This document shows, piece after piece, positions 32,239 to 64,000 of a DNA stretch of 64,000 nt. The first letter of the stretch is position 1. Each line of letters begins with the position of its first letter. Made by a program: the position numbers and the translations under genes. The stretch comes from Rhodospirillales bacterium (GTDB taxonomy: Bacteria; Pseudomonadota; Alphaproteobacteria; BOG-932; Roseiterribacteraceae). The DNA is taken from assembly GCA_028291365.1 (NCBI GenBank), contig JAQGIE010000088.1, forward strand, positions 3,000 to 66,999, written 5' to 3'. The notes under the pieces were generated by a model. That model did not search any database and was not told the origin of the DNA. It saw nothing but the letters and a program-made list of their open reading frames with translations.

Positions 32239-32321
32239 TGTTTGCGCTTCGGAAAGACTGTGCCCAATCTGCCGATCGAGCCGGCGCAGACCGGACCGGG
32301 TGCCGAACTAGGGGTCAGGAC

Positions 32322-37267: not shown

Positions 37268-37280
37268 GCGCAGCGCCGGC

Positions 37281-38110: not shown

Positions 38111-38131
38111 AGCGCCTTCTTATTCGATGCG

Positions 38132-40105: not shown

Positions 40106-40660
40106 TCAGCTCGTCGCGCGGCGACGCAGTAGCAGCAACAGCAGGCCGGCGCCCACCGCGAGCAGCGTCACGCTGGCCGGTTCGGCGACGCGTGCCGCTT
40201 CGAGCTGGCCGCGAATCTCGCCGCCCGGGAAATTGGTGGTGTGCACGTTGGCGTAGGTGTTGCCCGCCTCGATCGCGCTCAGCAGCGCGCCGAACGTGGC
40301 GATCCCGGTCGTGACCGAGTTGGTGAGGTCAGCGGCGGTAAAACTGTGGCTGTAGGTGAACGCGGTCGTGTTGGGCAGGCCGGTAAAGGGAAGGATGATC
40401 GGGCCGGCGACGCCGGGCGGCGCGAAGTGGAGATGCCCCGCCACGCTCGGCGTCGTGAGACCCGACACGCTCAGATCCACACTCACCGTCTCGGCAACCG
40501 TGTCGGCGACGAAGGTGGCGAAGCCGGTCGCCGTGGACGAGGTGGGCGGCACTTCCTCCGCGCCCCTCAGCGTCGCTTGGAAGGTGATGGGTACGGCCGA
40601 AGCCGGAACGGTTGCAAATGACAGCAGCGACGCTGCCAACATCGTATAAAGCGTACGCAT
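40106..40660 (-). CDS. CHRD-domain protein with PEP-CTERM sorting signal
   Basis: It has a signal peptide and CHRD hallmarks (GHLHFAPPGVAGPIILPF; ANVHTTNFPGGEIRGQL). The C-terminus is VAEPASVTLLAVGAGLLLLLLRRRATS, that is a PEP-like motif, a TM segment and a basic tail. Confidence 0.8.
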   Translation of the reverse strand: MRTLYTMLAASLLSFATVPASAVPITFQATLRGAEEVPPTSSTATGFATFVADTVAETVSVDLSVSGLTTPSVAGHLHFAPPGVAGPIILPFTGLPNTTAFTYSHSFTAADLTNSVTTGIATFGALLSAIEAGNTYANVHTTNFPGGEIRGQLEAARVAEPASVTLLAVGAGLLLLLLRRRATS

Positions 40661-41165
40661 CGACCGTCTCCTCGAGTTCGAGAGAACGCAGAAAAGGCGG
40701 GCAAGACACGTGCCGATGGCGGCGGCGTGCGGGTCTGCTGCGCGACTGATTCAGCGCACCGATGCGATTGTCAAAAATCGCGACGACGGACGTACAAAGC
40801 ATGCGGGCGCTGCGCCGATCGCGCTTCATCTACTTTGGTTTCGCCCGACGCCGCACGCGTGCGCGGGCGTGCGGTTCGTCACTCGCAGTCGGGCTGCTGT
40901 CCCAGGCACTTGTTCGGAGCAGCGCGGGCCGCAATTGACGATGCGCCCGTCATCTTCGACGGTCGCCCATCGAATCCACGCGCGAACTGCAACGCCGCGC
41001 TGGCGAACGTCGGAAACGAACCGGCGGATCGGGAGAATCGTCCGCCCGCCTTACAGCGCTGGACGAAAGGCGACACAAGCTGGCGTGCAACGCGCCGATT
41101 GCCTGCTGTGGTCTCGCACTTGCGTGCATTCAAACGAGGGATGCTTTTCGCCAACGGAGGTCACC

Positions 41166-43199: not shown

Positions 43200-44645
43200 T
43201 CAGAACTTGTATTGAAACCACGCGCCGAAATAGTCGGTGTCGCGTCCGCGCACCGTGTCGAACGTGCCGCCGACCTCGAACCGGACATAGGCGGTGGTGA
43301 TCGAGAGGTGGCGGTCGACCGTCCAGTCCGCCTGCACGGTGCTTTGCGTGCCCAGGTATTTTCCGCGGCTGGCCGCAGTGCCGGCGACCGCGGCGAAAGG
43401 CTGCCGGTAGAAGGCGTCCGTCCGGCTGTACCGCCACAGCAAGTCGACGCCGGCGGTGAGCAGCAGGGACTCGACCGGCTGGACCTGCACGCGCGGAAAC
43501 AGACTCATCACGTTCGAGGGGGCGTTGATCTGCGCCTGGGTGAAATAGGAACCCGTCGGGAAGATCGGATTGTAGGTGTTGTTGGTCTTGTCGTTCGGAT
43601 TGCCGTCGCCCGACGCGACGTCCACCTGCAGCGACAGGCGCGGGCGCCACGGCACGTCCGCGAGCGTGTAGCCGACATAGCTTGCGAGCAGGAAGGCGCG
43701 CACCTCCTCGTTGCGGAAATGGCCCGCCTGCAGCACCGCTTCGACGTCCCAGTCCCAGGGCTCGTGCTTGCCGAACAGACGCGCACCGACCGAGTGCCGC
43801 AAGTCGGTGCCGGTCTTGCCGGCATAGGTTCCAGCCGTGTTGCGAAAGCCGAAATAGTAGAAATCCGCGCTGGTGCCCGGCAGCACGTTTGCGACCGTCG
43901 CATAGCTGCCCCAGAGGGACTGGATCGGATTGAGCGAGTCGTTGAACGGGCCGAACTTGTTGTTGACCGGCCTCCCCGCGAAGACAGCGACCTGCACGCC
44001 GGGCCACGCCCAGTCCACGCGCCCGCCATCGAAGCTGCGCCGGAGGTTCGGCGTCTCGCGCGCCGACAAGATGCGCTGCACACCGTAGGACATCTCATGC
44101 CGTCCGAGCCGCAGCGTGAACTTGCCGTAATCGCCGGCGGTGGTGAAGTCGAGAAAGGCCTGCTGCACGTCCAGCCGGTCGACGTCGGTCGTGGTCCGTG
44201 CTTGCAGATTCGGCGCCTCGTGCTCACCAAACTGCAGGAAGGCCCGCAGGCCGTTCTCGAACCGCAGATCCGCATGAGCGAGCAGGCGGCTGAGAACAAA
44301 GCTCTCGGTGCCGACGCCGGTGAGCCCGAACACCGGGTTTTTGTAATACTGGTAGCGCTCGCGAACCTCGCCGCCGAGATTCAGGCGGGCGCCGTCGCCG
44401 AGCGGGATCCATTTCAGCGTGTCCCAGAAATCGTCGCTGCGGCGCGGGTCGGCGAGATAGGAGAAATCGTCATTGAAGCGCAGCGGCTGGATGCCCTGGC
44501 CGGGGCCGGGGCCGGGGCCGGGGCCGGGGCCGGCCGTGACGCTGTCCGCGGCTCGGGCGCCCGGCAGTGCCGTCATGCATGCGAGCAGCGCGAGCGCTGC
44601 GATCCGACCGTGCCTGTGGCGGCATCGCAACGCCGTCATGGTCAT
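43200..44645 (-). CDS. alginate-export (AlgE-like) family outer-membrane porin, paralogue 2
   Basis: 481 aa, collinear with 17159..18586 apart from an expanded Gly-Pro tract after the signal peptide. It ends in AWFQYKF. Confidence 0.75.
   Translation of the reverse strand: MTMTALRCRHRHGRIAALALLACMTALPGARAADSVTAGPGPGPGPGPGQGIQPLRFNDDFSYLADPRRSDDFWDTLKWIPLGDGARLNLGGEVRERYQYYKNPVFGLTGVGTESFVLSRLLAHADLRFENGLRAFLQFGEHEAPNLQARTTTDVDRLDVQQAFLDFTTAGDYGKFTLRLGRHEMSYGVQRILSARETPNLRRSFDGGRVDWAWPGVQVAVFAGRPVNNKFGPFNDSLNPIQSLWGSYATVANVLPGTSADFYYFGFRNTAGTYAGKTGTDLRHSVGARLFGKHEPWDWDVEAVLQAGHFRNEEVRAFLLASYVGYTLADVPWRPRLSLQVDVASGDGNPNDKTNNTYNPIFPTGSYFTQAQINAPSNVMSLFPRVQVQPVESLLLTAGVDLLWRYSRTDAFYRQPFAAVAGTAASRGKYLGTQSTVQADWTVDRHLSITTAYVRFEVGGTFDTVRGRDTDYFGAWFQYKF
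44498..44535. repeat. hexanucleotide microsatellite (CGGGGC / GGGGCC) x5 plus partial units
   Basis: Read directly: ggc cggggc cggggc cggggc cggggc cggggc cggcc. On the coding (minus) strand it encodes GPGPGPGPGPG in the porin N-terminus. Confidence 0.9.
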
Positions 44646-47105: not shown

Positions 47106-49055
47106 TTACGGGATGCTCGGGGGCCGCCGGAATTCGTAGCCGCCCATCATCAGGCAATCGACCTCGGTGGCGAGCAGAAAATTGATCGCGTCGCGCGGCT
47201 GCTCGACGATCGGCTCACCCGGCCCGTTCAGCGACGTGTTGAGCACGACCGGCACGCCGGTCAGCGCTGCGAATTCCTGCAACAGCGCGTGATAGCGGCC
47301 GGCTTGTTCGGTGACCGTCTGGACCCGCGCCGAACGATCGACATGGGTGATCGCGGGCAGCGCGTCGGCCGTCACCATCGAGGTGAACAGCATGTACCGC
47401 GCATCCTGCAGGCCGCCGCGAAACAGATCCGGCGCGTCGTCATGCAGCACGGCGGGCGCGAAGGGACGCCACCATTCGCGCCGCTTCACCGCGTTGACGC
47501 GGCGCCAATTTCCCGGCTGGCGCGGGTCGGCCAGCAGCGAACGATGACCCAGCGCGCGCGGCCCGATTTCGCTGCCGCCTTCGAACCAGGCGACGATCTC
47601 GTCGCGCGCCAGCAGCGACGCGGCATGTTTGGCGGCATCGGCGACTTTGCGCACCACGATGGTGGCGCCGCGGCGCGCGATCTCGGCTTCGATTTCGCCC
47701 GACGCGGTGGGCGGGCCCAGGTAGGGGGACTGGTTCTGCAGCGCCACCGACGGCTGCACCGGCGCGTCGAGCAGATTGTGCCAGAGATGCATCGCTGCCC
47801 CGATCGCGAGCCCGTCATCGGCGCAGCTCGGATCGACATAGAGGCGGCGGAACGGCGACTCGCGCAGCACGCGGCTGTTGGTCGGGCAGTTCAGCGCGCA
47901 ACCGCCCGACAGGCACAGCGCGTCGGTGGCGAGGCCGCCTGCGATCAGCGTTTCGTGCAGCTGTTCGACCGCGACCGCATAGGTCTCTTCGAACAGTTTC
48001 TGCGTGCTGGCGGCGATGTCGGCATTGACCGGCTCGGTGATGCGCGCGGGATCGCCCAGCGCGCTCATGTCGTAGCCGGCGGCGCCTGCCTCGGCGACGC
48101 AGCGGTCAAACCATTTCAGCATCAGCGGTTCGCTCGGCGGCGTGTCGAACCAGTTGCCGATCAGCTCGCTGCGATAGAAGCGCGGCTCGCCATAGGGGGC
48201 GAGCCCCATCAGCTTGCCGGCACCGCCGACCGCGCCCAGCGACAGGCGCCAGGCGACGAAATCGTACAGCGCGCCCACCGCGAGAAAATGCGGCATCACC
48301 GGGTACAGGCGATTGCCGCTGCCGTAATAGAACATGCCCGAGGACGGTGACGTGCTGGGTGCGTACCCGTCATGCGTCAGCACCGCGCCCGTGTCGAAGC
48401 CGGCGCGATAGAACACGCCTGCCGCGTGCGCCATGTGGTGATGCACCAGCACGCCCGGGATGCGCCGGCCGCGCAACGTCACCATCACCGGATAGTGAAA
48501 GCCGTTGCGGGCGCGCTCGCTCAGCAGCTCGGCGCCGGCAGCTTGCGCCGCCAGGCCGCGCAGCTTGGTGCCGGTCCAATGCGGCATCGCGATCGACTCG
48601 TCGAGCCAGCCGATCGACGCCACTTCGCCGCGCGCATAGGCGTCCGCTTCGGCATAGACGGCGCGCAGCGCGGGGGCCAGATCGGCATAGCCATCGCCGT
48701 TCAGCGCCTTGCGCAGGCCGAAGCTCAGCCGGTCGTGCAGCGCGGCGAGTGGGATCTGTTCGGCCAACGGCGAGTCGAGGCCGATCGCCTCGGCGCCGAC
48801 GAATTCGATCTGCAGGTCGGGGCACAGCCCGACCAGCATTTCGGTCGACTGCGTCGAGGTGATCGCGACCCAGTCGATCGCATGTTCGTCGAGCCCGGCG
48901 ACGGCGAGCGCCTGATCGATGCTCGCCTGGTCGAGGCCGCCGGCATGCTTGCGGCGCGAAAACCGCTCGCGGCAGATATACGAAGCGATGGCGCCATCGC
49001 GCAGGATCGTGGCGGCGGCGTCATGACCGAAATTCAGTCCGAGTACGTGAGTCAA
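47106..49055 (-). CDS. NodU/CmcH-family carbamoyltransferase
   Basis: 649 aa. The TTG start overlaps the upstream stop as TTGA. The N-terminal Kae1/ASKHA-like domain has LGLNFGHDAAATILRDGAIASYICRERFSRRKH. The C-terminal YrdC-like part has GPRALGHRSLLADPR...REWWRPFAPAVL...HVDRSARVQTV...PVVLNTSLNGPGEPIV. Confidence 0.9.
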   Translation of the reverse strand: MTHVLGLNFGHDAAATILRDGAIASYICRERFSRRKHAGGLDQASIDQALAVAGLDEHAIDWVAITSTQSTEMLVGLCPDLQIEFVGAEAIGLDSPLAEQIPLAALHDRLSFGLRKALNGDGYADLAPALRAVYAEADAYARGEVASIGWLDESIAMPHWTGTKLRGLAAQAAGAELLSERARNGFHYPVMVTLRGRRIPGVLVHHHMAHAAGVFYRAGFDTGAVLTHDGYAPSTSPSSGMFYYGSGNRLYPVMPHFLAVGALYDFVAWRLSLGAVGGAGKLMGLAPYGEPRFYRSELIGNWFDTPPSEPLMLKWFDRCVAEAGAAGYDMSALGDPARITEPVNADIAASTQKLFEETYAVAVEQLHETLIAGGLATDALCLSGGCALNCPTNSRVLRESPFRRLYVDPSCADDGLAIGAAMHLWHNLLDAPVQPSVALQNQSPYLGPPTASGEIEAEIARRGATIVVRKVADAAKHAASLLARDEIVAWFEGGSEIGPRALGHRSLLADPRQPGNWRRVNAVKRREWWRPFAPAVLHDDAPDLFRGGLQDARYMLFTSMVTADALPAITHVDRSARVQTVTEQAGRYHALLQEFAALTGVPVVLNTSLNGPGEPIVEQPRDAINFLLATEVDCLMMGGYEFRRPPSIP

Positions 49056-49600
49056 TTCGATCCGTCATGGGTAAAGTTCAGTCGGCCGCGCAGCAGGTCG
49101 AAACTGCGCCGGTCGCAGGAGGCGTGAAAGCGGCGGCCGTCCTGCAGCACCGCTTCGAAGGTGAGGATGTGGCGTTTCAGGCCGCCATAGATCGCGCCGG
49201 CGGTTGCACCGAGCAGCCCCGCCGCGAGTCCGCCCGCGACCGCCCACGCCGCGAGATGCGCGGGATCGCGGCCGATCTCTTCGACCAGGAAGCGAAGCTC
49301 GGCGATGTCGCGCGCCGGCGTGATCACGTCGCCGCTGGGCATTGCGATGCGCACCTCGCCGCTGGGCGACCGCCCGAGTCCGACCGAACCCGTGCCGAAC
49401 GACCCGCCCAGCACTTGAATGGTGCGGCGCCAGCTGAAGAAGCCGCTTTTGGTGACCGCGGCCGCGCTCGCCATGTTGACCATGAAATTGCCGGCGTCGT
49501 GCGCACGCTCGGTGCGATGCGGCGGCAGAACGCCCGAAGGCGCCACCATGTCGCTGACCGCGTCCAGCGGATTGGTGCCGATCGTGCTGCGTCGTGACAT
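49052..49600 (-). CDS. hypothetical 182-aa protein: basic N-terminal peptide plus Gly-zipper hydrophobic segment; candidate ParA partner
   Basis: C-terminal part of ORF 49052..50236. Its ATG shares one base with the ParA stop (TGATG), and AGGAGA lies upstream. Third-position GC is high throughout. The N-terminus is MSRRSTIGTNPLDAV, and the hydrophobic segment is AAWAVAGGLAAGLLGATAGAIYGGL. Confidence 0.6.
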   Translation of the reverse strand: MSRRSTIGTNPLDAVSDMVAPSGVLPPHRTERAHDAGNFMVNMASAAAVTKSGFFSWRRTIQVLGGSFGTGSVGLGRSPSGEVRIAMPSGDVITPARDIAELRFLVEEIGRDPAHLAAWAVAGGLAAGLLGATAGAIYGGLKRHILTFEAVLQDGRRFHASCDRRSFDLLRGRLNFTHDGSN

Positions 49601-50373
49601 CAGACTCTCCTCGTACGATCGAGTAATTCGGTGGCCAGCGCGCGATAGTCGTCGGCGCCGCGCGACCGCGCGGCATAGGTCGCGATCGGCTGGGCGAAAG
49701 ACGGTGCTTCGGCCAGACGGACATTCTCGCGAATCTCGGTGGCGAAAACGTCGGCGCCGAAACGTTCGCGCAGCTTCTCGACCACTTCGACATTGTGGCG
49801 GCTGCGCGCGCTGACGCGGCAGGCGACCAGCCCGGCCATCACCAGCGACGGATTCAGACGGCTGCGGATCAGCCCCAGCATCTCGACCAGCCGCGCCACG
49901 CCCGCCAGCGCCAGCACATGCGCCTCGACCGGCACCAGGCAATGCGAGCAGGCGGCGAGCGCATTGACGGTGAGCAGCCCGAAGGTCGGCGGCGTGTCGA
50001 TCAGCACGAAGTCGAAGCTGCCCAACGATGCGAGCGCGTGTTTGAGCAGCGTTTCGGCACCGATCTCGGCCGCCAGCTCGCGTTCGAGTCCCATCAGGTG
50101 CGGGCTGCTGTGCAGCGCGCGCACCCCGGCGGCCGAGGTCTGCACCGTGTCGGCGAAGCCAAACCCCCTGCTGCGCAACGGATCGCCGCGGAACAGGTCG
50201 ATCACCGACGGCGCGCCCGGTCCGACGCCCAGCCACATCGAGGCGTTGGCCTGCGGGTCGAGATCGAGCACCAGCACCGAATTACCGGCTGCGCCCAGCG
50301 CCGCCGCGAGATTGACCACCGTCGTGGTCTTGGCGGAACCGCCTTTGTAATTCGCGATGGCGATGATGCGCAC
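49600..50373 (-). CDS. ParA/Soj/MinD-family P-loop ATPase (orphan; no ParB nearby)
   Basis: GTG start. Deviant Walker A in IAIANYKGGSAKTTT, with DLDPQANAS and FVLIDTPP. 257 aa. Confidence 0.9.
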   Translation of the reverse strand: MRIIAIANYKGGSAKTTTVVNLAAALGAAGNSVLVLDLDPQANASMWLGVGPGAPSVIDLFRGDPLRSRGFGFADTVQTSAAGVRALHSSPHLMGLERELAAEIGAETLLKHALASLGSFDFVLIDTPPTFGLLTVNALAACSHCLVPVEAHVLALAGVARLVEMLGLIRSRLNPSLVMAGLVACRVSARSRHNVEVVEKLRERFGADVFATEIRENVRLAEAPSFAQPIATYAARSRGADDYRALATELLDRTRRV

Positions 50374-50455
50374 GGATCGGCTTTCGGCGGTTATCGATTA
50401 TTTAAGCCGACCGGGCGGCAAAACGCTGCACAAAAACTGTCGAACCGGATTCCAC

Positions 50456-51667
50456 GTGCCCCCATCCTATCGCCTGACGCTTGTCGCGCTGTGCTGCTGC
50501 GCCGCTTTCACCGGCGCCGCGGCCGAGCCTGACGCCGTAGCGCCGGGCAAGGCAGGCTTCGTGATCGGCGACTTCACCGTCGTGCCGTCGATCACCGCCG
50601 GCATCACCTATAGCGACAATCTGCGCCAGGATCCCTCGAATGAAGGCGACTGGCGCGCCGACGCGGTGTTCGCGGTGAATGTCGCGTCGAGCTGGAAAGA
50701 GCACGAGCTGACCTTCGACGCGTCGCACACCGAGCGGCGCTACCGGCGCGTTACCAGCCAGGACAATTCGTTGAACTCGGCCGGCGGCAGCGGCCGCTAC
50801 GACTTGAACGAGCGCTGGAAGATCATCACCAACCTCAGATATTTCGAGAACGAAGTCTCGCGCTCGAATCCCAACGGCATTCCCGGCGCGCTGCAGGCGA
50901 CGGTCGGCACGAGCCTGTTCAACCTGCAGGCGAATTACGAAGGCGAGCGCGTTTTCGACTGGGTCATTCTCAACGCGCAGCACCTGACCTTCGGTTCGGC
51001 CTTCCGCGCCGGCCAGGAGATCGCGCAGAACAACCAGAACCGGACCGAAGTCGATTTCGCCAATCTGCTCGGCTTCAAGTTCGACCTGTGGAAGCTCAAG
51101 CCGTATCTCTATGTCAGCCGCGGCACCGTCGATTACGACAGCACCAGTGATCGCACGCTCGGCCTGCGCAGCTCGGTCGACTACAAATATGGTGGCGGCG
51201 CCGCCATGGAGCCGATCGCAGGCCTGTCGGTCGAATTCCGCCTCGGCGGCATTTCGCAAGCCTATGACGATCCGACCATCGGCACCTTGAAGGGCTGGTT
51301 CGGCTCGGCCGGCGCGGTGTGGCGGATCGATGACAAGACGACCGCAATTCTCGACACGTCGCGCACCTTCAGCGAGACCAACATTCCGGGTTCGCCCGGC
51401 TATTTCATGAGCCAGGGCACGTTGACCTTGCAACGCAAGCTCGACGAGCGCTTGACCGCCGACCTCGCGCACCGCTCGGCGCACTACAACGTGGTGCAGT
51501 ACCCGCTGCACGCGACCAACCTGACGACGATCGTCGGCCTGTCCTACGCGATCACGCCGCTGATCACTGCGCGCATCCAGATGCTGCACCAGCATCAGCG
51601 CGGCAATCAGCCGCTCTACACCTTCTTCGAAAACGCCGAGACGGCGCAGATCTCGCTGCGCTTCTAG
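50456..51667 (+). CDS. outer-membrane beta-barrel protein (BBP2-like putative porin)
   Basis: ORF 50357..51667. I prefer GTG 50456 because the longer start overlaps the divergent ParA start. It has a signal-like segment [17 protein letters not shown], alternating beta-strand pattern, and the terminal ISLRF. Family assignment is by pattern only. Confidence 0.6.
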   Translation: MPPSYRLTLVALCCCAAFTGAAAEPDAVAPGKAGFVIGDFTVVPSITAGITYSDNLRQDPSNEGDWRADAVFAVNVASSWKEHELTFDASHTERRYRRVTSQDNSLNSAGGSGRYDLNERWKIITNLRYFENEVSRSNPNGIPGALQATVGTSLFNLQANYEGERVFDWVILNAQHLTFGSAFRAGQEIAQNNQNRTEVDFANLLGFKFDLWKLKPYLYVSRGTVDYDSTSDRTLGLRSSVDYKYGGGAAMEPIAGLSVEFRLGGISQAYDDPTIGTLKGWFGSAGAVWRIDDKTTAILDTSRTFSETNIPGSPGYFMSQGTLTLQRKLDERLTADLAHRSAHYNVVQYPLHATNLTTIVGLSYAITPLITARIQMLHQHQRGNQPLYTFFENAETAQISLRF

Positions 51668-51681
51668 CGAAGGCCGCGCCA

Positions 51682-53574
51682 CTAGAAGCCGATCCGCAGG
51701 CGCAGATCGAGGCTGTGCGCGCGCGTGGTGCGGTCGGCGACGAGCTGGTCGTAGCCGAGCCGCAGATCGACATCGTCGCCCGCGCGCAAGGTGGCGCCGG
51801 CACCGAGCCGGATGCGGTTGCGGTCGCCGACCTGCAGCACGCCGCTGGTGGCTTCGCCGTTGGCGAGACGCGCGGTGACGGTGCTGGTGCCGCCGAACTG
51901 CGCTTCGTAGCGCGCATGCAGGTCGGGCGCGAACCGGCCCAGCGCGGTTGTCACCGTGCCGCTGGCGCGCAGCCCCAGCTCGCCCACCGTGGCGCGCGCA
52001 TGCTGCTCGTCGACGCGCAGATCGAGCAGGCGCGTGCCGCTTTCGGCATAGGAGTCGATCGACGCCGATACGTGCCGCAGCCCCAGCTCGGGACCGGCGG
52101 TGATGGCGCCGAATTTCCAGCCATAGCCGCCGCGCGCCGCGACAAACCAGCTGTCGCCGTTGCTGCTGCCGCGCGCGGTCGGGAAGGGCGCGAAATCGGC
52201 GTTGCGTTCCAGCGCGCGATACCGGTCCCAGCCGGTGCCCGCGGTGACGCGCGCCGACCAGCCGCCGTTTTCGTAACTTGCCGCGGCGGCGATCAGGACC
52301 CGGCGCGCCTCGGCGCCGCCAGCGCCTTGTTCGAGCGTCGCGCGCCCGCCGCCATACCCGACATCGGCTTCGAGCCGCAGCTCTTCGGTAAGCTGATAGG
52401 TCAGTCCGACCAGCGCGAAGGCCGCTTGGTCGTGAAAGCCCGCAACGCCGGCCTGCTCGTTGAAGCTGCTGTTCTGGCCGACGCCGCTCATCACCAGGCC
52501 CAGCCGCGCGCCGTCGCGCGTGATGCGCAGCTGCTGCCCCGCGGATTCGACCAGCGAACGCGCCACCAGGTCGGACATGTCGCGCGCGAACGCGACCTGC
52601 GCCGCGATGCGCCGGCCGCCGTCGAGCATCGTCGACAAGCTTCCGGTCATCAGCGCGTCGATCAGCGCGTGCGTCGCGCGGGTCGGGTGATTGACGTCCC
52701 AGAACATCGTCTGGTCGGCCTGTTGCTGCGTCGCGCAGGCGCCGCTCGGCGAACCGCTCCCGAGCAGGCAGGGCGTCAGCACGTTGGTGAAGCCGTAGAC
52801 GGCGGGATGGGTGAACAGGTCGGCATAGAGTCCGCCCACGTCGACATGCACCAGGGTGGCGCCGGCCAGCTGCGGCCGCAGCTGGTCGACCGTCTGCAGC
52901 AGCAGCGCATTGTGCTGCCGGCTGAGTTCGGCGCCGGTCGCCGCGGTCTGCGCGCCGAGGCCGCGAATGCTCGGCACCAGCGCCAGGTCGAACTCGTTGA
53001 CGACGACGAAATTGCGCGCGCCGGCGGCGTACAGCTGCCGCACGCTGCTTTCGATATTGCCGACCGCACGCGCGACGACGGCGGGCACCGTCGGTGCGGT
53101 TGAGGCGCCGACCAGGAACGCGGTGTAGTCGTTGGCGCCGGTCCACACCGTAAACAGCGTCGAGGCGGTGGGGCGCTGGATCGAGCCGGTCTGCAGATAG
53201 CCGAGATAGGCCGAGACCTGCGCCAGCGCGCCGGGCACCTGTCCGGCCGCCACGTTGAGCGTTTCGGGTCCCGAGGTCGAACCGCCGAAGGCGAAATTAT
53301 AGCCGTCGATCGGACCGCTGCGCGCGCGGCCCAGCAGCAGGTCCGACCACAAGGTCAAACGCGGGATCTCGCGATCGACCCACATCGGCCCGTTGGAATA
53401 ATGGCCGTTGTAATAAGGCGGCGACGGCGGAATGGCGCCGCCGGTCATGGCCGAGACGTTGCCGGTGTCGCTGAGACTGTCACCGAACACGACGCGCTGA
53501 TCATAGCGCGGCGCCGCGTTGGCGCCGGTGCAGAGCAGGACGAGCGCGATGGCGCCGAGTTGGATTGTCCGCAT
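51682..53574 (-). CDS. autotransporter with SGNH/GDSL esterase-lipase passenger domain (EstA-like)
   Basis: Internal ATG after GGGAGG in ORF 51682..53775. It has a signal peptide, GDSL block I VVFGDSLSDTGN, block III TVWTGANDY, and block V FWDVNHPT. The C-terminal autotransporter barrel of about 280 aa ends in LRLRIGF. Confidence 0.85.
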   Translation of the reverse strand: MRTIQLGAIALVLLCTGANAAPRYDQRVVFGDSLSDTGNVSAMTGGAIPPSPPYYNGHYSNGPMWVDREIPRLTLWSDLLLGRARSGPIDGYNFAFGGSTSGPETLNVAAGQVPGALAQVSAYLGYLQTGSIQRPTASTLFTVWTGANDYTAFLVGASTAPTVPAVVARAVGNIESSVRQLYAAGARNFVVVNEFDLALVPSIRGLGAQTAATGAELSRQHNALLLQTVDQLRPQLAGATLVHVDVGGLYADLFTHPAVYGFTNVLTPCLLGSGSPSGACATQQQADQTMFWDVNHPTRATHALIDALMTGSLSTMLDGGRRIAAQVAFARDMSDLVARSLVESAGQQLRITRDGARLGLVMSGVGQNSSFNEQAGVAGFHDQAAFALVGLTYQLTEELRLEADVGYGGGRATLEQGAGGAEARRVLIAAAASYENGGWSARVTAGTGWDRYRALERNADFAPFPTARGSSNGDSWFVAARGGYGWKFGAITAGPELGLRHVSASIDSYAESGTRLLDLRVDEQHARATVGELGLRASGTVTTALGRFAPDLHARYEAQFGGTSTVTARLANGEATSGVLQVGDRNRIRLGAGATLRAGDDVDLRLGYDQLVADRTTRAHSLDLRLRIGF

Positions 53575-53722
53575 GATCAGCGACCTCCCGTCGCGCCGAA
53601 GCCCGGCATGCTGCCGCGCGGGTCGTAGCGCCCGCTGCGGCCGATATTGTTGTTGTTGGAGCCCGGCTGGGCGTCGGCGTCTGAAGCGATGCTGCAGGCG
53701 CCGCTCGGAGCGGCGGGGCGCA

Positions 53723-53914
53723 TCACGTGCCCCGCAGGCTGCGCGGGCGCATGTCGGTCCAGGTCGCGTCGACATGGGCGAGCGCGTCTTCGCGCGATTG
53801 CGCTTCGGTGCAGGCGCGCCAGCCTTGGGGCACGTCCTTGCCCTCGGGCCACAGCGAATACTGGTCTTCGTCGTTCACCAGCACGAGAAAGCGCGGTTCG
53901 GGCGCGTCGGTCAT
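53723..53914 (-). CDS. MbtH-like protein
   Basis: 63 aa. It has [22 protein letters not shown]...WTDMRPRSL, which includes the three invariant Trp residues of the MbtH family. Its start overlaps the NRPS stop as ATGA. Confidence 0.9.
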
Positions 53915-56900
53915 GTCGGGGTCTCCTCGATCGCGGTCGCGATCGTCTGGGCCAGCTGCGCCGCGTGGGCTGCATCCAGCATCGTATGGTGGTGTCCGGG
54001 ACTCGTGTGCAGGTGCAGTCGCCCGCCGACCAGCGCGCGCCAGCCGAGCGACGGTTCGCGCCCGCCCTCCGCGGCTGCGATCACGATCAGGTCGCGCTCG
54101 CTGCGTTCGGCGCGAAAGGATTGCGCTGCGGCGAACGCGTTGCGGCAGACCGCGATCAGCTGCTCGGCATCATCGATGGTGAAATTCACGTCGATCCGGT
54201 CGGCAGCGCGCGCCGCCGCGAGCAGATAGGCGATCGACGCCGCGCGACCGGCCGGCAGTTCGCCGGGCGGCTGCTGCAACAGCAGATGCGACAGCGCCTG
54301 CAATTCTTCGGCAACGCCGAAACAAGCCGAGCGCTCGGGCTCGGCGGCGGTGTCGATCACCAGCGTGCGCACGTCGATCCCGTCGAGGCCAAGCAGGCTT
54401 GCGGTCGCGACGCTCAGCATGCCGCCCAGCGACCAGCCCGCCAGCACCACCGGCCCGCCTGCGAAACGCTCGGCGATCGCGCTCGCATAGAGTCGCGCGA
54501 ACGCGTCGGCGTCGGCGAGCGGCGCTTGACCGTCGCTCAGGCCGGGCGCCTGCAAGCCCCAGATCGGACGATCGTCGGGCCAGCGCAGAATCAGCTCGCG
54601 ATAGCAGAACAGGTCGCCCGACAGCGCATGCACCAGGATCAGCGGCGCGCGCGCCGGATTGCCCGGGCGCAGCGCCACCAGCGGCAGCGCGGTTTCGGGT
54701 TCGGGGCCGCGCAGCAAGGTTGCCAGCTCGGCGACGCTCGACGCCGCGAACAGCGACGCGACGGGCAGGCGCACGCCGAACTCGGCTTCGAGCCGCGCGA
54801 TCAGCGCCACCGCGAGCAGCGAATGACCGCCGAGATCGAAGAAGCTGCGCTCGCGATCGACGCTGTCGAGACCGAGCAGCGCCTGCATCACCGAAGCCAC
54901 GCGGCGTTCGAGCGGATCGGTCGCTTCGCGCACCGCGCGTGCGGCGGGCAGCTTCACGCGGCCCAGCGCGGCGCGATCGATCTTGCCGGCTGGCGACAGC
55001 GGCAGCGAGTCGAGCACCAGGATCGTCGCGGGCACCATGTGGTCGGGCAGGCGCGCGCGCAGATAGGCGCGCATCGCGTCGGCGTTGCCGCGTCCGCCGA
55101 CATACGCGACCAGCGCCGCGTCGCCGCGCAGGTCGGGTTCGACCAGCACCGCGGCCTCGTCGACGTCGGGATGCGCCGCCAGCACTGCTTCGATCTCGCC
55201 GAGTTCGACGCGGAAGCCGCGCAGCTTCACCTGCTGGTCGAGGCGGCCGAGAAACTCGATCGTGCCGTCGCTGCGCCAGCGGCCGCGATCGCCGGTGCGG
55301 TACATGCGCGAACCCGGCGCGCCGCCCGGCTCGGCAACGAAGCTGCGCGCGGTCAACGTTTCCTGGCCGACATAGCCGCGCCCGACGCCGACGCCGGCAA
55401 TGCAGATCTCGCCCGCCAGTCCGATCGGCACCGGGCGCAGCGCGCTGTCGACGACATGGATGCGCGCATTGGCAATCGGTGCGCCGATCGTGACCTCGTC
55501 GCCGGGCGCGAGCGGCGCGGTCATGGTACCGCACACGGTCGCTTCGGTCGGGCCGTAGGCGTTGAAGAAGCGGCGGCCCGGCGCCCACGCATGGACCAGA
55601 AAAGGCGGGCACGTCTCGCCCGCGGTGACGATGGTGTGCAGCGCCGGCAACGCGCCGGGATCGAGCTGCGTCAGCGCGGTCGGCGGCAGGGTCGCGTGCG
55701 TGACGCCGTGCGCGACCAGCGTTTCGGTCAGCGGCGCGCCCGGCAGCAGCGACTCGCGATCGGCCAGCACCAGCGTGCCGCCCGCCACGAGTGTGGTGAA
55801 GATCTCCCACACCGAGGCGTCGAAACTGGCGCTGGCGAATTGCAGCACGCGGCTGCCGGGGCCGATTTCGAGACGGGCCGCGATCTGCGTCGCTAGGTTG
55901 CACAGGCCGCGATGCGTCAGCGTCGCGCCCTTGGGCGTGCCGGTCGAACCCGACGTGTAGATCAGATAGGCGAGATCGTCGGCGGTGGCCGGCGATTGCG
56001 GTGCCGTGTCGGTGCCCGGGGCGAGCTGATCGATCAATACCGGCGACGCGTTGGTCGCGGGCAGCGTCGTGACGAGATCGCTGCGCGTGACCAGCAAGGT
56101 CGCGCCCGAATCCTGCAGCATGTGCGCCAGGCGCGCGGCGGGATAGGCGGGGTCGAGCGGCAGCCACGGCGCACCGGCGCGCGCCACCGCGAGAATCGCG
56201 ACGACCAGCTCGATGCCGCGCGGCAGCGCGATCGCGACCGGCCGGTTCGGCGCCGCGCCGTGCGCGCGCAGCGCGGCCGCGAGCATCGCTGCGCGGCGAT
56301 GCAGCTCGGCATAGGTCAGCGACTCGCCGCCCTGCACCAGCGCGACCGTGTCTCGCGTCGCCGCCACCAGCGCGTCGATGGTCGTGTCGTCGGGAAAGGG
56401 GGCCGCCGTGTCGTTCCACTGCGCCAGCAACGCCGCATCTTCATCGGTGAGCCAGTTCAGCGCCGAGATGGGCTGCGCCGGCGCCGCCACCATCGACGAC
56501 CACACCAGCTGCAGCCGCGCGATCATGCGCTCGACCGTCTCGGGCTCGAACAGGTCGGTGTCGTATTGCAGCCCGGCGATCAGCGAGCCGTCCTCGCGCT
56601 CGCGCATGGTCAAGGTCAGGTCGAACGCCGCGGTCTGCGTCTCGACCATCAGCGGACGCATGGTGACGCCATCGAGCGTGGTTTCGGCACCGCCCGCCGG
56701 CTGCAAGGCGAACATCACCTGGAACAAGGGCGCATGGCTCAGCGATCGCTCGGGCTGCAGCGCGTCGACGACCTGTTCGAACGGCACGTCCTGATGCGCG
56801 TAGGCGGCCAGCGCGGTGGCGCGCAGCCGGTCGATCAAGGTCGCTGCGTCGGGATCGCCCGACAGGTCGACGCGCAGCACCAGCGTGTTGACGAAGAAGC

Positions 56901-59900
56901 CGATCAGCGCTTCGAGCGCCACGTGCGTGCGGTTCGCGACCGGCGTGCCGATGGCGAAATCGCTCTGCCCCGCGTCGCGGCCCAGCATCGCGGCGAAGCC
57001 CGCCAGCAACGTCATGTACAGCGTCGCGTTGCGCGTCGAAGCCAGCGCGCGCAGAAGCTGCGTCAGGTCGGCGGGCACTTCGAACACCGCCATGGCGCCG
57101 CAATGATGCTGGATCGGCGGGCGCGGCCGGTCGGTCGGCAGCGCCAGCAGTGGCGGCAGATCGTGCAGCTGCTTGCGCCAGAAGCCCAGCTCGCGATCGA
57201 GATGCGTCGTCGTCAGACGCGCGCGCTGCCACGCCGCATAATCGGCATATTGCACCTGCAGCGGCGCCAGCGTGTCGCCGCGATACAACGCGGCGAGGTC
57301 GCGCAGCAGCACCGGCATCGAACCGCCGTCGGCGACGATATGGTGCAAGGTCAGCAGCAGCGCATGCCGCTCGGGCGCGACGCGCAGCAGCATGGCGCGG
57401 ATCGGCCAGTCGCGCGCCAGATCGAACGAGCGCGACGCGTCGGCCTCGGCGAGAAATTCGAGTTCGTCCTCGCGCGCGTCGCGCAGCTGGAACGGCACCG
57501 GCCCGGGCGGATCGATGCACAGAGTCGGCGTGCCGTCGCTGGCGTCGATGCGGCTGCGCAGCAGCTCGTGCCGCGCCACCAGCGCGTCGAGCGCGCCGCG
57601 CAGCGCGTCGACGCGCAACGGGCCTTGCAGGATCGTGGCGGTGGGGACGTTGTAGATGGCGCCGCCATCGTCGAGATGGTCGAGGAACCACAGGCGCTGC
57701 TGCGCGAAGGACAGGGTTGGCGCGACGCCGGCGCCGCGCGGCGCGAGCTCGTGCCGCGAATCGTCGGCGAGATGCGCCATCGCGGCGGCGAGCTGGCGCA
57801 CCGTCGGATGTTCGAACAGAAGATTGAGCGGGATTTCGAGCGCGAAGGCTTGGCGCACGCGCGCGATGAGCTGGATCGCCAGCAGCGAATGCCCGCCCAG
57901 CGCGAAGAAATCGTCGTCGATGCCGATCTGCGTGCGGCCGAGCAGCCCGGCCCACAATCCGGCCAGCACTTCTTCGCCGAAATCGCGCGCCAGGACGTGC
58001 GTCGCGGCGTCGGAGTCGGCGGCGCGGTCGGGCGCCGGCAAGCGCTTGCGGTCGAGCTTGCCGTTGGCGCTGAGCGGCATCGCTTCGAGCCGCACGAACT
58101 GCGCCGGCATCATATAGTCGGGCAGCTTGGCCTTGAGATGCGCGCGCCAGCCGTCGGTGCTGCCGTCGCCGGTGGCGTAGGCGACCAGCCGCCTCTCGTC
58201 CCCTTCGCCGCGCACCACGACCGCGACTTCGCCGGCCCCCGGCGCGTCGGCCAAGGTCGCTTCGATTTCGCCCAGCTCGATGCGGAAGCCGCGCAGCTTC
58301 ACCTGGTCGTCGGCGCGCCCGAGATAGACGAGGCTGCCGTCGGGCAGATGCCGCGCCAGATCGCCGGTGCGGTAGAGCCGCGCCCCCGGCGCGCCGAACG
58401 GATCGGCGATGAAACGCTCCGCGGTCAGGCCGGGCCGGCCGAGATAGCCCCGCCCGACGCCGGCCCCGCCGACATGGAGTTCGCCCGTGACGCCGACCGG
58501 CACCGGTTCGAGCCAGCGGTCGAGCACGTACAGTTTGGTGTTGGCGATCGGGCGCCCGATCGGAATCGCACCGGCGGTGGGCGTCGCGGCGCCGACTTCG
58601 TGCACCGCACAGCCGACCACGGTTTCGGTCGGTCCGTATTCGTTGATCAGCCGGATGCCGCGTTCGCGCCACGGCGCGATCTGCGCCGCGCTCAACGCTT
58701 CGCCGCCGATCACGAAGGCGCCGGCGGCGCGGTCGCGCACCGCCCCGAGCTGCACCAGGCTGTCGAGATGCGCCGGCGTCAGCTTGACCAGGCTGAAGCC
58801 GTTGTCGGCGCCCAGCGCGCCGGCCAGCGCGTCGATCTCGTTCTGTTGCGGCAGCAACGTGACCGTGCGGCCGCAGACCAGCGGCAGCAGCAGGCTGGTG
58901 ACGGTGGCGTCGAAACTGATCGAGGTGTTGACGGGCGCGCCGGTGCCGCCGGTCATGTCATAGGCGCCTGCGGCCCAGCGCAGATAGTTGAGCACGCCGC
59001 GATGGGGCAGCATCGCGCCCTTGGGCTGTCCCGTCGAACCCGACGTGTAGATCACGTAGGCAAGATGATCTTGGCCGACTGCGCGTGCCGGCGACGGCAG
59101 CACCGGACCGTCGGCGGTTTCGAGATCGAGGCACACGACGCGCGCGCGGGTCGCGGGCAGGCTTTCGAGCAGATCGCTTTCGGTCAGCAGCACCGATGCG
59201 CCGCTGTCGCGCATCAGATAGGCGAGCCGGTCGGGCGGATAGGCGGGATCCATCGGCAGATAGGCGCCGCCCGCTTTCCAGATCGCGAGCAGCCCGATCA
59301 CCAGCTCGACGCTGCGCCCGGCGCACAGGCCGACGATGGTCTCGGGTCCGACTTTCATGCGCAGCAGGCGATGCGCCAGCCGGTTGGCGCGCTCGTCGAG
59401 CTGGCGATAGGTGATCGCCTGCTCGCCCGCACGCACCGCGATCGCGTCGGGGGTCGCGGCAGCGGCCGCTTCGATCAGCGAGGTGACGCTGGGCGCGTCG
59501 TCGAAACGCTGCGCGGTGTCGTTCCAGTCAATCAGCAGGCGCGCGCGTTCGGCGGGATCGAGCAGGTCGAGCCGTTCGATCGGCGTGTCGGGCGACGCCA
59601 CCATCGCGCCGAGCAGCCGTACATACAGGCTGGCCAGGCGCGACGCGGTCGCTTCGCTGAACAGATCGGCATCATATTGCAGCGCCGCGTCGGTTCCGCC
59701 GTCGCGATCGAGCAGAGTCAGCAGCAGGTCGAGCTTGGCCGCTTCGCTGGGCAGGTCGATCGGCGACAGTTCGAGATCGGTCCCGGGGATCGCCACCATG
59801 CTCAACGGCGCGTCGAGCAAGGTAATCATCACCTGGAAAACGGGATGGTGCGTGGCGGCGCGGTCTGGGCGCAGCGCCTCGACCGTGCGTTCGAACGGCA

Positions 59901-60915
59901 GGTCCTGGTTGGCTTGCGCGTCGAGCGTGACCGCGCGCACGCGCGCCAGCAGGTTGGTGGTGCTCGGCCGGTCGGCCAGGTCGATGCGCAACGGCAGCGA
60001 ATTCAGAAAGCAGCCGATCAGCCCTTCGATCTCGGTCTGGGTGCGGCCCGCCACCGGCGTGCCGATCACCAGATCCTCGCCGCCGCCGAGCCGCTGCAGC
60101 AACGAAGCGTAGGCTGCGACGAAGACCATGTAGGGCGTGACGCCGGCGCTGCGCGCGAGCGCCGTGACGCCGGCGCGCAGCGCCGGATCGATCCGCTGCA
60201 GGACGCTGCCGCCGGTCCAGCTCGGCCGCGCCGGACGCGGAAAGTCGGTCGGCAATTGCAGGAGCTTGGGCGCGCCCTCGAGCACGCCCATCCAATGCGC
60301 CAGCTGCGCCGCCATCTCGGGCGCGTCGCCTTGTTCGCGCTGCCAGGCGGCGTAGTCGGCATATTGCACCGGAAGATCCGGCAAGTTCGGCGCGCGACCG
60401 GCCGCAAGGTCGGCATAGATCGCGATCAGCTCGCGCACCAGCACGCCGATCGACCAGCCGTCGGCGGCGACATGGTGCAAGGTCACCAGCAGAATATGGT
60501 CCTGCGGCGCGCAACGCAGCAGCTGCAGTCGCAGCGGCCAGTCACGCGCGAGGTCGAACGGACGCACCGCCTCATCGCGTGCCAGCCGGGCGAACGAAGC
60601 TTCGCGTGCCGCCGGATCGAGCTCGCCGAGGTCGGTCACCGCAATCGCGACGGGGGCCGGCGTCGCGATGAACTGCGTCGCCTGGCCGTTGACCGTCGGG
60701 AACAGCGTGTGCAGCACCTCGTGCCGCGCGACGATGCGGCTGAAGGTGGCTTCGAGCCGGTCGATCTGCAGACTGCCGCGCAGCCGCACCGCCGACGGAA
60801 TGTTATAGGCGGCGCCGCTGCCCATGGCGTCGAGGAACAGCATCCGTTCCTGCGCGAAGGAAAGCGGCAGCAGCGGCAGTTCGGCGTCGATCTGCATGGC
60901 GTCAGGCGGTGTCAT
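53911..60915 (-). CDS. nonribosomal peptide synthetase, two modules plus thioesterase (C-A-T-C-A-T-TE)
   Basis: 2334 aa.
- C domains: HHVAADGWS and HHIVADGGS.
- A domains: [16 protein letters not shown]...NEYGPTE...[14 protein letters not shown]...YRTGD...[13 protein letters not shown], and [16 protein letters not shown]...NAYGPTE.
- T domains: FFALGGHSL and FFDLGGHSL.
- TE domain: GWSLGG. Confidence 0.95.
54961..56373 (-). other. adenylation domain of the final module; pocket residues read as DAWTVAAVCK (Phe/aromatic-like)
   Basis: By-eye alignment to GrsA-PheA positions 235-331 and 517. Source motifs: [38 protein letters not shown]. Boundaries are approximate. Confidence 0.55.
58036..59478 (-). 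other. adenylation domain of the penultimate module; pocket residues read as DATKVGEVGK (Asn-like)
   Basis: By-eye alignment. Source motifs: [39 protein letters not shown]. Boundaries are approximate. Confidence 0.55.
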
Positions 60916-63900
60916 CAGGGCGTGATCCGGTGGGGCGTGCGGGCTCGGGCCCGTATGCCCGGCAGCGCCGGCCGGGCGGCCGAGTCCTGCAGCAGCAGCG
61001 GTGCGAGCTGGGCGATGGTCGGTTGTTCGAACAGGGTCTTGAGCGGCAGTTCGGCGCGGAACCGGTCGCGGATGCGCGAGACCAGCTGCGTCGCGAGCAG
61101 CGAATGGCCGCCGAGATCGAAGAAATTGTCGTGCACGCCGATCGGCGTGCGTTGCAGCAGCTCGCTCCAGATTTCTGCGAGCTGCTGTTCGGTGCCGTCG
61201 CGCGGCGCGACATGCGCATCGGCCACCGCCGCTTCGGCGCTCGGCGCGGGCAGCGCGCGGCGATCGACTTTGCCGTTCGGCGTAATCGGAAGGGCGTCGA
61301 GCCGTACGAACTGTGCCGGCACCATGTAGTCGGGCAAGGCGACGCGGAGCCCGCTGCGCAGCGCGTCGTCGCTCGCGTCACCGACGATGTAGGCGACCAG
61401 CCGCTTGTCCCCGGGCACGTCCTCGCGCGCCAGCACGGCGCAGGCGGCGATGCCGGGTTGCGCCGCCAGCACCGCTTCGATCTCGCCGAGTTCGATGCGG
61501 AACCCGCGCAATTTCACCTGGTCGTCGCTGCGCGCGAGATATTCGATGCTGCCGTCGACCAGACGCCGGGCGCGATCGCCGGTGAAATAGAGGCGTTCGC
61601 CGGCAATCTCGACGAAACGTTCGGCGGTGAGGTCCGCGCGCTTCCAGTATCCCTCGGCCAGCCCGTCGCCGCCCAGCCACAGATCACCCGCGACGCCGAG
61701 CGGTACGGGAAGACGCTGCGCATCGAGAATATGCGCGGTCGTGTTGGCGACCGGCCGGCCGATCGGCACGGTGCGCGCCTCGGCATCCACCTGTTCGATC
61801 AGATGCCAGGTCGCAAAGGTCGTGCTCTCGGTCGGACCGTAGACATGCAGCAGCCGCTTGGGCGCGCCCTGCGCCAGCACGCTGCGTACCGCGCCTGGAT
61901 CGACCGCTTCGCCGCCGAACAGAACGTCGCCGACCGGCGCAAAGCAACCCGGCGCCTCGCGCGCCATCTGGTTGAACAGCGCCGTGGTGATGAACATGGC
62001 GTCGATGCGGCGCTGGGCGAGCGCTGCGGCGAAGATCGCGGGCGCCAGCGTCTCATCGCGCTCGAACACCACGACGGTGCCGCCATGGATCAGCGCGCCC
62101 CAGATCTCGAACGTCGCCGCGTCGAACGACGTGTTCGAGACATGCGCGATGCGTGCGTGGTCGAGCTGTACGTAGTCGGTGTTGCAGACCAGGCGCACCA
62201 CGCCGCGATGCGGGATTGCGATGCCTTTGGGCGTACCGGTCGAACCCGACGTGTACATGACGTACGCGCGCGGCGCCTCGGTCGCAGCGACGAAACCGGC
62301 GGTCGCGTGCGGGTCGGGCATCAGGCGGGTGAGCGCGCCGGGCAAAGCGGTCGGGCGGTCGGTCAGCACGACGCGAATCCCCGAGTCTTCGACCATCGCC
62401 GCGATACGCTGCGCCGGATAGGCGGCATCGAGCGGCAAATAGGCAGCGCCGGTCTTGAGGATCGCCAGCATCGACTGGATCAGCAGCGCGCCGCGTTCGA
62501 GCCGCAGCCCGACCAGGTCGCCGCTGCGCACGCAAGCGGCCGCGAGCTGGGCCGCGATCGCGTTGGCGCCGCGTTCGAGCGCCGCGTAGTCGATGCGCAC
62601 GTCGCCATGTTCGATCGCGATCGCGGCCGGCGTGCGCGCCGCCTGCTGCGCCACCAGTTCGTGGATCGTCGCTTGCGGGTACGGCGTCGCCGTCGCGTTC
62701 CAGCGCTCGAACTCTTGCAGTTCGGTTTCGGTCAGCAAGGGCAGCGAAGCGACCGGCCGCGACGGCTGCGCCGCCATCACGTCGAGCAGCGTGCAGAAAT
62801 GCCTGGCGAGGCGCGCGATCGTCACCGCGTCGAACAGGTCGGTGTCGTAATGGATCAGCGCGGTCAGCGCGTCGCGCTCGACCCAGATCGACAGATTCAG
62901 ATCGAAGGTCGCGGTCGCGGTCGGCAGGTCGAACGAGGCGACCTCCAGCCCGTCGAGTTGCAGCGACGGCCACTCGGTGTCCTGCAAGGTGAACATGGTC
63001 TGGAACAAAGGCGCGTGCTGCAGCGAGCGTTCGGGCTGCAGCGCGTCGACGATCTGTTCGAACGGCACGTCCTGGTGCGCGAAACCGTCGAGCGTGCGCT
63101 GCCGCGTCCGTCGCAGCAAGGTGGCGGTATCGGGATCGCCCGACAGGTCGGCGCGCAACGTCAGGGTATTGGTGAAGAAGCCGATCAGCCCTTCGAGCGT
63201 CACGTCGCTGCGATTGGCCATCGGCGTGCCGATGGCGAAATCGTCCTGGCCCGCATAGCGCGACAGCAGCGCGCCGTAGCCGGCCAGCAATGTCATGAAC
63301 AAGGTCGCGTCGTGCGCTTGGCCCAGCGCGCGCAGCCGCGCGGTGAGCGGCGCCGGAATGGTGAAGCGATGCGTGGCGCCGTGATGGCGTTGGAGTCTCG
63401 GCCGCGCGCGATCGGTCGGCAGGTCGAGCGACGGCGGCAATCCCGCCAGCGCTTTGCGCCAATAGTCGAGCTGCGGTTCGGTGCGCGCGCTTGTCAGCCA
63501 GCCGCGCTGCCACGCTGCATAATCGGCATATTGCACCTTGAGCGGCGGCAACGCGTCGCCGCGATAGAGATCCGCCAGTTCGCGCAGCAGCAGTTCGACC
63601 GACCAGCCGTCGCCGGCGATGTGGTGCAAGGTCAGCAGCAGCACGTGGTGCGTCGGCGTCACACGCAGCAGCACGGCGCGGATCGGCCAATCCTGGGCGA
63701 GATCGAACGGGCGCAGCGCATCCTCGTCGGCGAGCGTCCGGATCTCGTCCTCGCGGCAGGCGCGCAGCGCCAGCGCCATCGCGCGCGGCGCCTCGACCTG
63801 CACGCTCGGGCTGCCGTCGCGCCTCGGATAGGTCGTGCGCAGCACCGCATGGCGCGCCACCAGCGCGTCGAATGCGGCCTGCAATGCGCCGACGTCGAGT

Positions 63901-64000
63901 GCGCCGCCGATCCGGTACGCACCCGGCATGTTATAGGCGACGCTGCCGCCGAGCTGGTCGAGGAACCACAGGCGCTGCTGCGCGAAGGACAGAACCGGCA
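60915..64000 (-). CDS. nonribosomal peptide synthetase, 5' end outside window; the visible part is one C-A-T module
   Basis: The ORF track begins at an internal Met (63929), but the frame stays open to the window edge. Bases 63930-64000 read ...[23 protein letters not shown], a C-domain N-terminus. It has [30 protein letters not shown] and FFDLGGHSL. The pocket reads DAFFLGVTFK (branched aliphatic, Ile/Val-like). Its stop shares one base with the start of the next NRPS gene. Confidence 0.95.

Follow-up and report, generated by a model that had tools for sequence, protein, structure and literature searches.

What kind of peptide would be made by the nonribosomal peptide synthetase (NRPS) genes at the end of a Rhodospirillales contig, and is the part of the assembly line that can be read there intact? 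We addressed this question in a stretch of 64,000 nt (the window; contig JAQGIE010000088.1 of assembly GCA_028291365.1, positions 3,000 to 66,999 of the forward strand). Its last part, 53723-64000, codes for two NRPS proteins, designated NRPS-A and NRPS-B, and for an MbtH-like protein. This part is likely to be the 3′-terminal section of an operon for a type I modular NRPS in an uncultured soil bacterium, probably an alphaproteobacterium. The coordinates of all features are collected in Table 1.

Organization and integrity of the NRPS genes

Judged from open reading frames (ORFs), translations and Pfam matches, NRPS-A and NRPS-B are two translationally coupled genes. They specify three canonical elongation modules of condensation (C), adenylation (A) and thiolation (T) domains, one C-A-T module in NRPS-A and two in NRPS-B, the last followed by a thioesterase (TE) domain. 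The stop codon of NRPS-A and the ATG of NRPS-B have 1 nt in common at 60915 (TGATG; ...CCC TGA TGA CAC by direct reading), and NRPS-B joins the MbtH-like gene through an ATGA overlap at 53911-53914 (...ACA TGA CC by direct reading). The initial annotation, made from the sequence without database searches, had described two coupled NRPS genes, the upstream one cut by the window edge, with the visible order C-A-T, C-A-T-C-A-T-TE and then an overlapping MbtH gene; Pfam and the reading of both junctions agree with this description. The count of three modules is also backed by direct repeats with a spacing of 3.07-3.2 kb. The NRPS genes have a GC content of 70-72% and most of the flanking sequence one of about 66-69%, and GC at third codon positions (GC3) is 0.85-0.86 in all three minus-strand ORFs of 53723-64000.

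In NRPS-A, Pfam matched one Condensation (1.5e-98), one AMP-binding (6e-68, with AMP-binding_C) and one PP-binding domain (3e-17). In NRPS-B it matched two Condensation, two AMP-binding, two PP-binding and one Thioesterase domain (PF00975, 1.4e-16), and it matched no further domain family in either protein. All three C domains of the window match PF00668 (E values from 1e-98 to 1e-191) and carry the HHxxxDG active site by motif reading. The three A domains each match PF00501 and PF13193 and contain the core motifs A3, A5, A7, A8 and A10, including Asp235 and Lys517. The motifs SGSTGxPKG and GK[ILV]DR were found and the A10 Lys is kept; A domain 1 has small motif variants (HVYGPTE and YFTGD). 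Each of the three T domains matches PF00550 and has a GGHS phosphopantetheine site, while the Ser (GWSLG), Asp (LVIDT) and His (GHHH) of the TE triad match their positions in PDB 7CRN. Pfam matched no epimerization (E), methylation (MT) or reductase (R) domain in the three window modules, as the initial annotation had stated, and the module length of about 1040 aa leaves no room for such an insert. The 63-aa MbtH-like protein matches PF03621 (9.7e-20; 70 bits, cutoff 27) and has the three signature Trp residues (SLWP...PQGW...WTDMRP).

The reading frames were compared with contigs from public sequencing runs, and every public run holding window sequence is a soil metagenome. Contigs of run X1 tiled NRPS-B and the NRPS-A/NRPS-B junction with 0-1 mismatches and no indels, and window positions 49212-55185 were matched at 99.9% identity by a Logan contig of 5974 bp. 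Runs X2 and X3 contain strain variants that differ by single-nucleotide polymorphisms (SNPs) only, and neither indels nor stop codons occur in them. The 67 SNPs comprise 35 synonymous and 32 non-synonymous changes; 37 fall at third codon positions, a pattern that fits purifying selection. The inactivating frameshifts against which the initial annotation had cautioned were absent from these soil-metagenome contigs over the visible part.

These data bear on whether we are looking at a remnant, decaying or silent, of a cluster that is losing domains and has no product. One module (described below) appears to be without its A domain, the downstream side shows no genes for tailoring, regulation or export, and the ratio of synonymous to non-synonymous SNPs is only about 1:1. 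We nevertheless consider such a remnant quite improbable: the catalytic motifs of the three C, three A and three T domains, the TE and the MbtH signature are all intact, 10 kb are free of stops and indels in several strains, the excess of third-position SNPs speaks for purifying selection and translational coupling is kept. The NRPS tail is real and probably functional, as far as its sequence can tell.

Subtype of the condensation domains

The initial annotation had called the three C domains LCL-type (condensing onto an L-configured donor) on the grounds that each carries a single HHxxxDG motif. That argument is insufficient, since a single motif speaks only against a dual E/C domain and not against a DCL domain (D-configured donor); the conclusion itself was upheld by two comparisons. 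For the first, a reference set of about 230 C domains was taken from fetched NRPS loci (L003-L082) and labelled by position. A C domain right after a T domain was counted as L-donor or dual E/C, and one right after an E domain as DCL by definition. The three window C domains, together with a C domain further upstream (C0, described below), were 44-49% identical (340-393 bits) to C domains after T versus 26-28% (111-133 bits) to those after E. For the C domain of the first visible module, the Ile module, the best after-T domain gave 49% identity and 389 bits, and the best after-E domain 28% and 133 bits.

The second comparison was with C domains of known structure, whose LCL, DCL and starter labels follow from the surfactin, tyrocidine and calcium-dependent antibiotic pathways. 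The window C domains scored 242-281 bits against the LCL references TycC6 (2JGP) and FscG C3 (7KVW), 64-116 bits against the DCL references SrfA-C (2VSQ) and TycB1 (9BFD_B), and 32-120 bits against starter C domains (4JN3, 7C1H and 8F7F). The Ile-module C domain gave 281 bits with TycC6, 105 with SrfA-C, 90 with TycB1 and 34-111 with the starter domains. Scores against Txo1 and Txo2 of teixobactin synthesis were 319-354 bits. On these low identities and scores the DCL reading of the window C domains was rejected, and on the low scores the starter reading. The dual E/C reading was rejected because each domain has only one His motif; neither a pattern search nor direct reading found a second, N-terminal one in the C domains. 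The C1 motif SFAQxR(L/M) is present in all four C domains, the three of the window and C0. By these comparisons all the C domains are LCL-type elongation domains, and the residues that they condense as well as the upstream donors are predicted to be L-configured. Since the C domain at the window edge is not a starter domain, more modules lie upstream.

The DNA of the C1 motif includes an identical run of 35 nt in two of the C domains (57680-57714 and 63958-63992). Logan unitigs, which are 40-2000 bp in length, end at this repeat at about 63,970 in three runs, and word depth rises there to 100-190.

The C domains also bear on the class of product. A cyclic lipopeptide of the Pseudomonas type, that is, an N-acylated peptide rich in D residues and released by cyclization, would suit the hydrophobic C-terminus, the TE and the proteobacterial lineage, and the start of the line, beyond the visible part, leaves room for a starter C domain. 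On the other hand, the line ends in one TE and not in a tandem TE-TE, the four C domains are all LCL-like, have the common C1 motif and include no dual E/C domain, and the flanks are without LuxR or MacAB-type genes. We regard this class as improbable.

Specificity of the adenylation domains

We re-read the substrate pockets from the A4, A5 and A10 anchors and the GrsA offsets. The resulting codes, DAFFLGVTFK, DATKVGEVGK and DAWTVAAVCK for A domains 1 to 3, are identical to the three that had been read by hand in the initial annotation. In A domain 3 the spacing from D235 to N321 is 86 residues, the same as in GrsA, and its code was therefore obtained by offset alone. A domains 1 and 2 have loop insertions of 6 and 3 residues, respectively, and their pockets were read via the local motifs F-I-T-T-A / K-L-T-P-A, xxGGE and xYGPTExxxx.

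The initial annotation had assigned to these codes a branched aliphatic residue, Asn and Phe or another aromatic residue, and each code appears verbatim in the literature with a matching residue. OciB-A5 and OciC-A7 have DAFFLGVTFK as their pocket and correspond to Ile positions (Val in minor congeners) of Planktothrix cyanopeptolins (PMC2533009). DATKVGEVGK was predicted to specify Asn in the zeamine NRPS (PMC3547906), and DAWTVAAVCK to specify Phe in the lunaemycin NRPS (PMC9866976). The A-domain structures of the Phe-activating GrsA (1AMU) and TycA (5N81/5N82) aligned best, among the window domains, with A domain 3. Ile (or Val), Asn and Phe are thus supported as the predicted substrates.

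None of these predicted residues is an iron ligand, and this tells against a siderophore as the product. In its favour, siderophore clusters often contain an MbtH gene, as this locus does, and the window encodes a TonB-dependent receptor (32118-34502); the receptor, however, lies 20 kb away amid unrelated genes. No N-hydroxylase, dihydroxybenzoate (DHB)/salicylate genes or IucA/IucC were found nearby in the window, and no exporter within 20 kb. That no siderophore-type hydroxylase or exporter adjoins the NRPS genes is also what the initial annotation had reported. Taken together, a siderophore is very improbable.

A possible module without an adenylation domain beyond the window edge

The initial annotation had proposed extending the sequence rightwards in order to recover the initiation modules. 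The extension succeeded in part: 596 residues were gained, and the initiation modules were not reached. NRPS-A as called on the 68,787-bp parent contig (P0241) is 100% identical, comprises 1623 aa and is truncated at its N-terminus. Pfam matched two Condensation, three PP-binding and one AMP-binding domain in this single protein call, of which the additional DNA lies outside the window. The domain order is T-C-T-C-A-T, the extra residues reading T (partial)-C-T. C0, the additional C domain, has the motif HHIAADG and is LCL-like; it is followed by a linker of about 40 residues and then by a complete T domain with GGHS, which differs from the other T domains of the cluster. P0241 opens with 29 residues that recur unchanged in the Ile-module T domain, starting at FDLGGHS. 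This internal T repeat probably explains why the contig ends there, and it may also mean that module n-4 arose by recent duplication of the Ile module.

At least five modules make up the assembly line. The one that directly precedes the Ile module is a putative C-T module without an A domain, presumably loaded in trans. With no A domain of its own, it would most likely receive the residue before Ile in trans, either from an A domain whose gene lies elsewhere or from that of a neighbouring module; the 64-kb window contains no other AMP-binding gene as a candidate. Such loading has precedents. In the WS9326A system, the A-less C-PCP module of Cal19 is served by the MbtH-dependent trans A domains Cal22 and Cal23, with Cal4, and T domains are also loaded in trans in yersiniabactin synthesis (by the A domain of HMWP2) and in the A-less ninth module of the syringomycin synthetase (PMC7539972).

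Alternatively, the missing A domain could be an artefact of metagenome assembly, the true module being an ordinary C-A-T. NRPS modules are repetitive, the unitigs of three runs all break at the 35-nt repeat at about 63,970, the parent contig ends in a T stretch that shares 29 identical residues with a second T domain, and one protein call stands behind the junction. A deletion, however, would have had to be exactly in frame, and it would have had to leave a natural-looking linker at the end of the C domain followed by a complete and distinct T domain that duplicates none of the others in the cluster. Between C-A and A-T linkers there is no homology through which an assembler could collapse them. 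A collapse by mis-assembly is unlikely for these reasons, and A-less C-T modules are documented elsewhere (PMC7539972). We therefore judge an artefact unlikely, although it is a risk to be reckoned with.

Proposed biosynthesis

We propose the following course for the end of the synthesis. The substrates activated by the A domains would be L-Ile (with some Val), L-Asn and L-Phe, each loaded onto the T domain of its own module, and one or more A domains would probably depend on the MbtH-like protein for folding or activation. The LCL-type C domains would then couple these residues to an L-configured upstream peptidyl thioester. As the modules contain no epimerization domain, the product would end in ...-L-Ile-L-Asn-L-Phe. 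The chain would be freed by the Ser-Asp-His TE, either by hydrolysis or by macrocyclization. We put at about even the chance that the locus as a whole encodes a non-collinear NRPS in which a free-standing, MbtH-dependent A domain, or a neighbouring one used a second time, charges the A-less C-T module in trans, and which makes a peptide of at least five residues with this end, belonging to a family without a characterized relative.

Several points weigh against this proposal. The substrate predictions stand on 10-residue codes, and two of the three literature matches to these codes are themselves predictions. The partnership of the MbtH-like protein with these A domains is putative, its basis being genetic linkage through the ATGA overlap. 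For the putative upstream T-C-T, its C-to-T junction included, the source is a single gene product called on the parent contig. Run X1 may be the source sample of the contig itself, leaving X2 and X3 as the clearly independent runs. Finally, the start of the cluster, its tailoring genes and its exporter would lie beyond the visible part.

Neighbouring genes and lineage

Downstream of the MbtH-like gene, a 48-codon ORF that overlaps its stop codon is probably spurious. It is followed by a GDSL-esterase autotransporter gene, the product of which has best homologues at 36-39% identity, the best named relative being from Azospirillum (36%). No terminator was found on the minus strand between the MbtH-like gene and the autotransporter gene, and the end of the operon is therefore undefined. 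A convergent gene for a beta-barrel porin lies beyond the autotransporter gene, then come the genes for the ParA-like ATPase, the 182-aa protein and the carbamoyltransferase, and genes for an M28 peptidase, an alginate-export-type porin and other proteins follow further downstream.

Apart from a possible exception, no recognized NRPS tailoring, resistance or export gene was found among the window genes downstream of MbtH; the left border of the cluster is therefore probably the MbtH-like gene. The exception is the carbamoyltransferase (47106-49055, on the NRPS strand), which might have a tailoring role. We also considered the GDSL autotransporter, the porin, ParA, the M28 peptidase, the O-methyltransferase and a beta-lactamase-family protein as tailoring or export genes, and found no convincing link for any of them.

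Other parts of the window carry signals of lineage. The block of about 8 kb at 21113-29096 is collinear with contigs of Bradyrhizobium metagenome-assembled genomes (L097 and L111) at about 72% nucleotide identity, and the acyl-CoA dehydrogenase of the window is 75-83% identical to those of many Alphaproteobacteria (Hyphomicrobiales, Reyranella, Bradyrhizobium and Acetobacteraceae). Together with the Azospirillum relative of the autotransporter, these similarities make an alphaproteobacterial host probable, at the level of the class.

Table 1. Features of the window and of the adjoining part of the parent contig
Feature	Coordinates	Strand	Basis or remark
NRPS-A, 3′ part (C-A-T)	60915..>64000	minus	ORF and Pfam; frame open at window edge
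NRPS-B, complete, 2334 aa, C-A-T-C-A-T-TE	53911..60915	minus	ORF, translation, Pfam
MbtH-like gene, 63 aa	53723..53914	minus	ORF, translation, Pfam
C domain, Ile module (HHIAGDG), LCL-type	62715..63992	minus	Pfam, subtype comparison
A domain 1, code DAFFLGVTFK, predicted Ile (Val minor)	61269..62651	minus	Pfam, pocket reading, PMC2533009
T domain 1 (FFDLGGHSL)	61002..61187	minus	Pfam, motif
C domain, Asn module (HHVAADG), LCL-type	59551..60852 (approximate bounds)	minus	subtype comparison
A domain 2, code DATKVGEVGK, predicted Asn	58033..59481 (approximate bounds)	minus	pocket reading, PMC3547906
T domain 2 (FFALGGHSL)	57781..57969	minus	Pfam, motif
C domain, Phe module (HHIVADG), LCL-type	56425..57717	minus	Pfam, subtype comparison
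A domain 3, code DAWTVAAVCK, predicted Phe	54982..56367	minus	pocket reading, PMC9866976
T domain 3 (FFDLGGHSL)	54715..54903 (approximate bounds)	minus	motif
Type I thioesterase domain, GWSLG Ser	53935..54645	minus	Pfam, alignment to PDB 7CRN
P0241 residues 1-596	about 64001-65786, outside window	minus	protein call on parent contig
48-codon ORF, probably spurious	53577-53723	minus	ATG overlaps MbtH stop (GTGATG); called on Logan contig L001; no Pfam match
GDSL-esterase autotransporter (EstA-like)	51682-53574	minus	has a Shine-Dalgarno sequence of its own and a signal peptide; 150 nt past the MbtH-like gene
ParA/MinD-like ATPase, 182-aa protein without family, NodU/CmcH-type carbamoyltransferase	47106-50373	minus	3.3-6.6 kb past the MbtH-like gene
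Two paralogous Alginate_exp-family outer-membrane porins	17081-18586; 43200-44645	plus; minus	both in one 64-kb window
Secreted CHRD-domain protein	40106-40750	minus	adjoins O-methyltransferase/HTH-cupin group
O-methyltransferase (PF00891 and dimerization domain) and two helix-turn-helix (HTH)-cupin regulators	37221-40029		methyltransferase overlapping or adjoining the regulators
Acyl-CoA dehydrogenase, family III CoA-transferase, Liv-type ATP-binding cassette (ABC) transporter block	21113-29096		
DUF4096 (IS4/IS5 transposase N-terminal) ORF, mobile-element remnant	3577-4572	plus	domain

Comparison with known systems

No orthologue of either NRPS was found among 5.8 billion proteins, where the best matches reached 39-47% identity for NRPS-B and up to 52% for NRPS-A. 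Plasmids yielded none either, all 3474 matching records of PLSDB being <60% identical. Such identities are ordinary similarity between modules, and we therefore see no orthologue and no match to a known biosynthetic gene cluster, a possibility that the initial annotation had raised. Exact-protein look-ups of NRPS-B and P0241 gave no match, while that of the MbtH-like protein returned a 6-kb and a 1.4-kb contig only, both on the downstream side. A scan of metagenome contigs with NRPS-A was flooded by generic NRPS motifs, with 50% identity at best, and an exact 42-mer was absent from the GTDB genomes.

New peptides can come from orphan NRPS clusters of soil bacteria that have not been cultured, and the Alphaproteobacteria have been comparatively little mined for nonribosomal peptides. 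The value of this NRPS tail is that of a lead for recovery of the cluster and heterologous expression; it holds no conceptual surprise. The A-less module, if true, would be a proteobacterial case of trans loading beside an MbtH gene.

Compared with known NRPSs, those of the window are about 40-50% identical, and we could link the predicted end Ile-Asn-Phe to no known product. When each window C domain was searched alone, the top solved C domains were those of Txo1/Txo2 (6OYF and 6P1J), followed by 5U89, FscG (7KVW) and TycC (2JGP). The cyanopeptolin synthetase Oci of Planktothrix resembles A domain 1 in the 10-residue code of OciB-A5 and OciC-A7; cluster and organism are unrelated, and this pocket code is the sole common feature. 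With canonical type I termination modules the line has in common the C-A-T-TE logic and all core motifs. The visible part, with its LCL-A-T modules, its type I TE and its MbtH partner, is textbook and shows no unusual chemistry; the A-less module would be a known variant.

The MbtH-like protein belongs to the same family (PF03621) as YbdZ, which goes with EntF, and Cal4, which goes with Cal22/Cal23, and agrees with such proteins in size and in the three signature Trp residues. Its gene is likewise carried in the operon, here overlapping the last NRPS gene. As to Cal19 itself, that system has trans A domains whereas none is visible in the 64-kb window, its host is an actinomycete whereas the present one is proteobacterial, and the junction here comes from a protein call. 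What the two would have in common is a C-T module without an A domain, putative here, a normal C-A-T module next to it on the same protein and an MbtH-like gene in the cluster.

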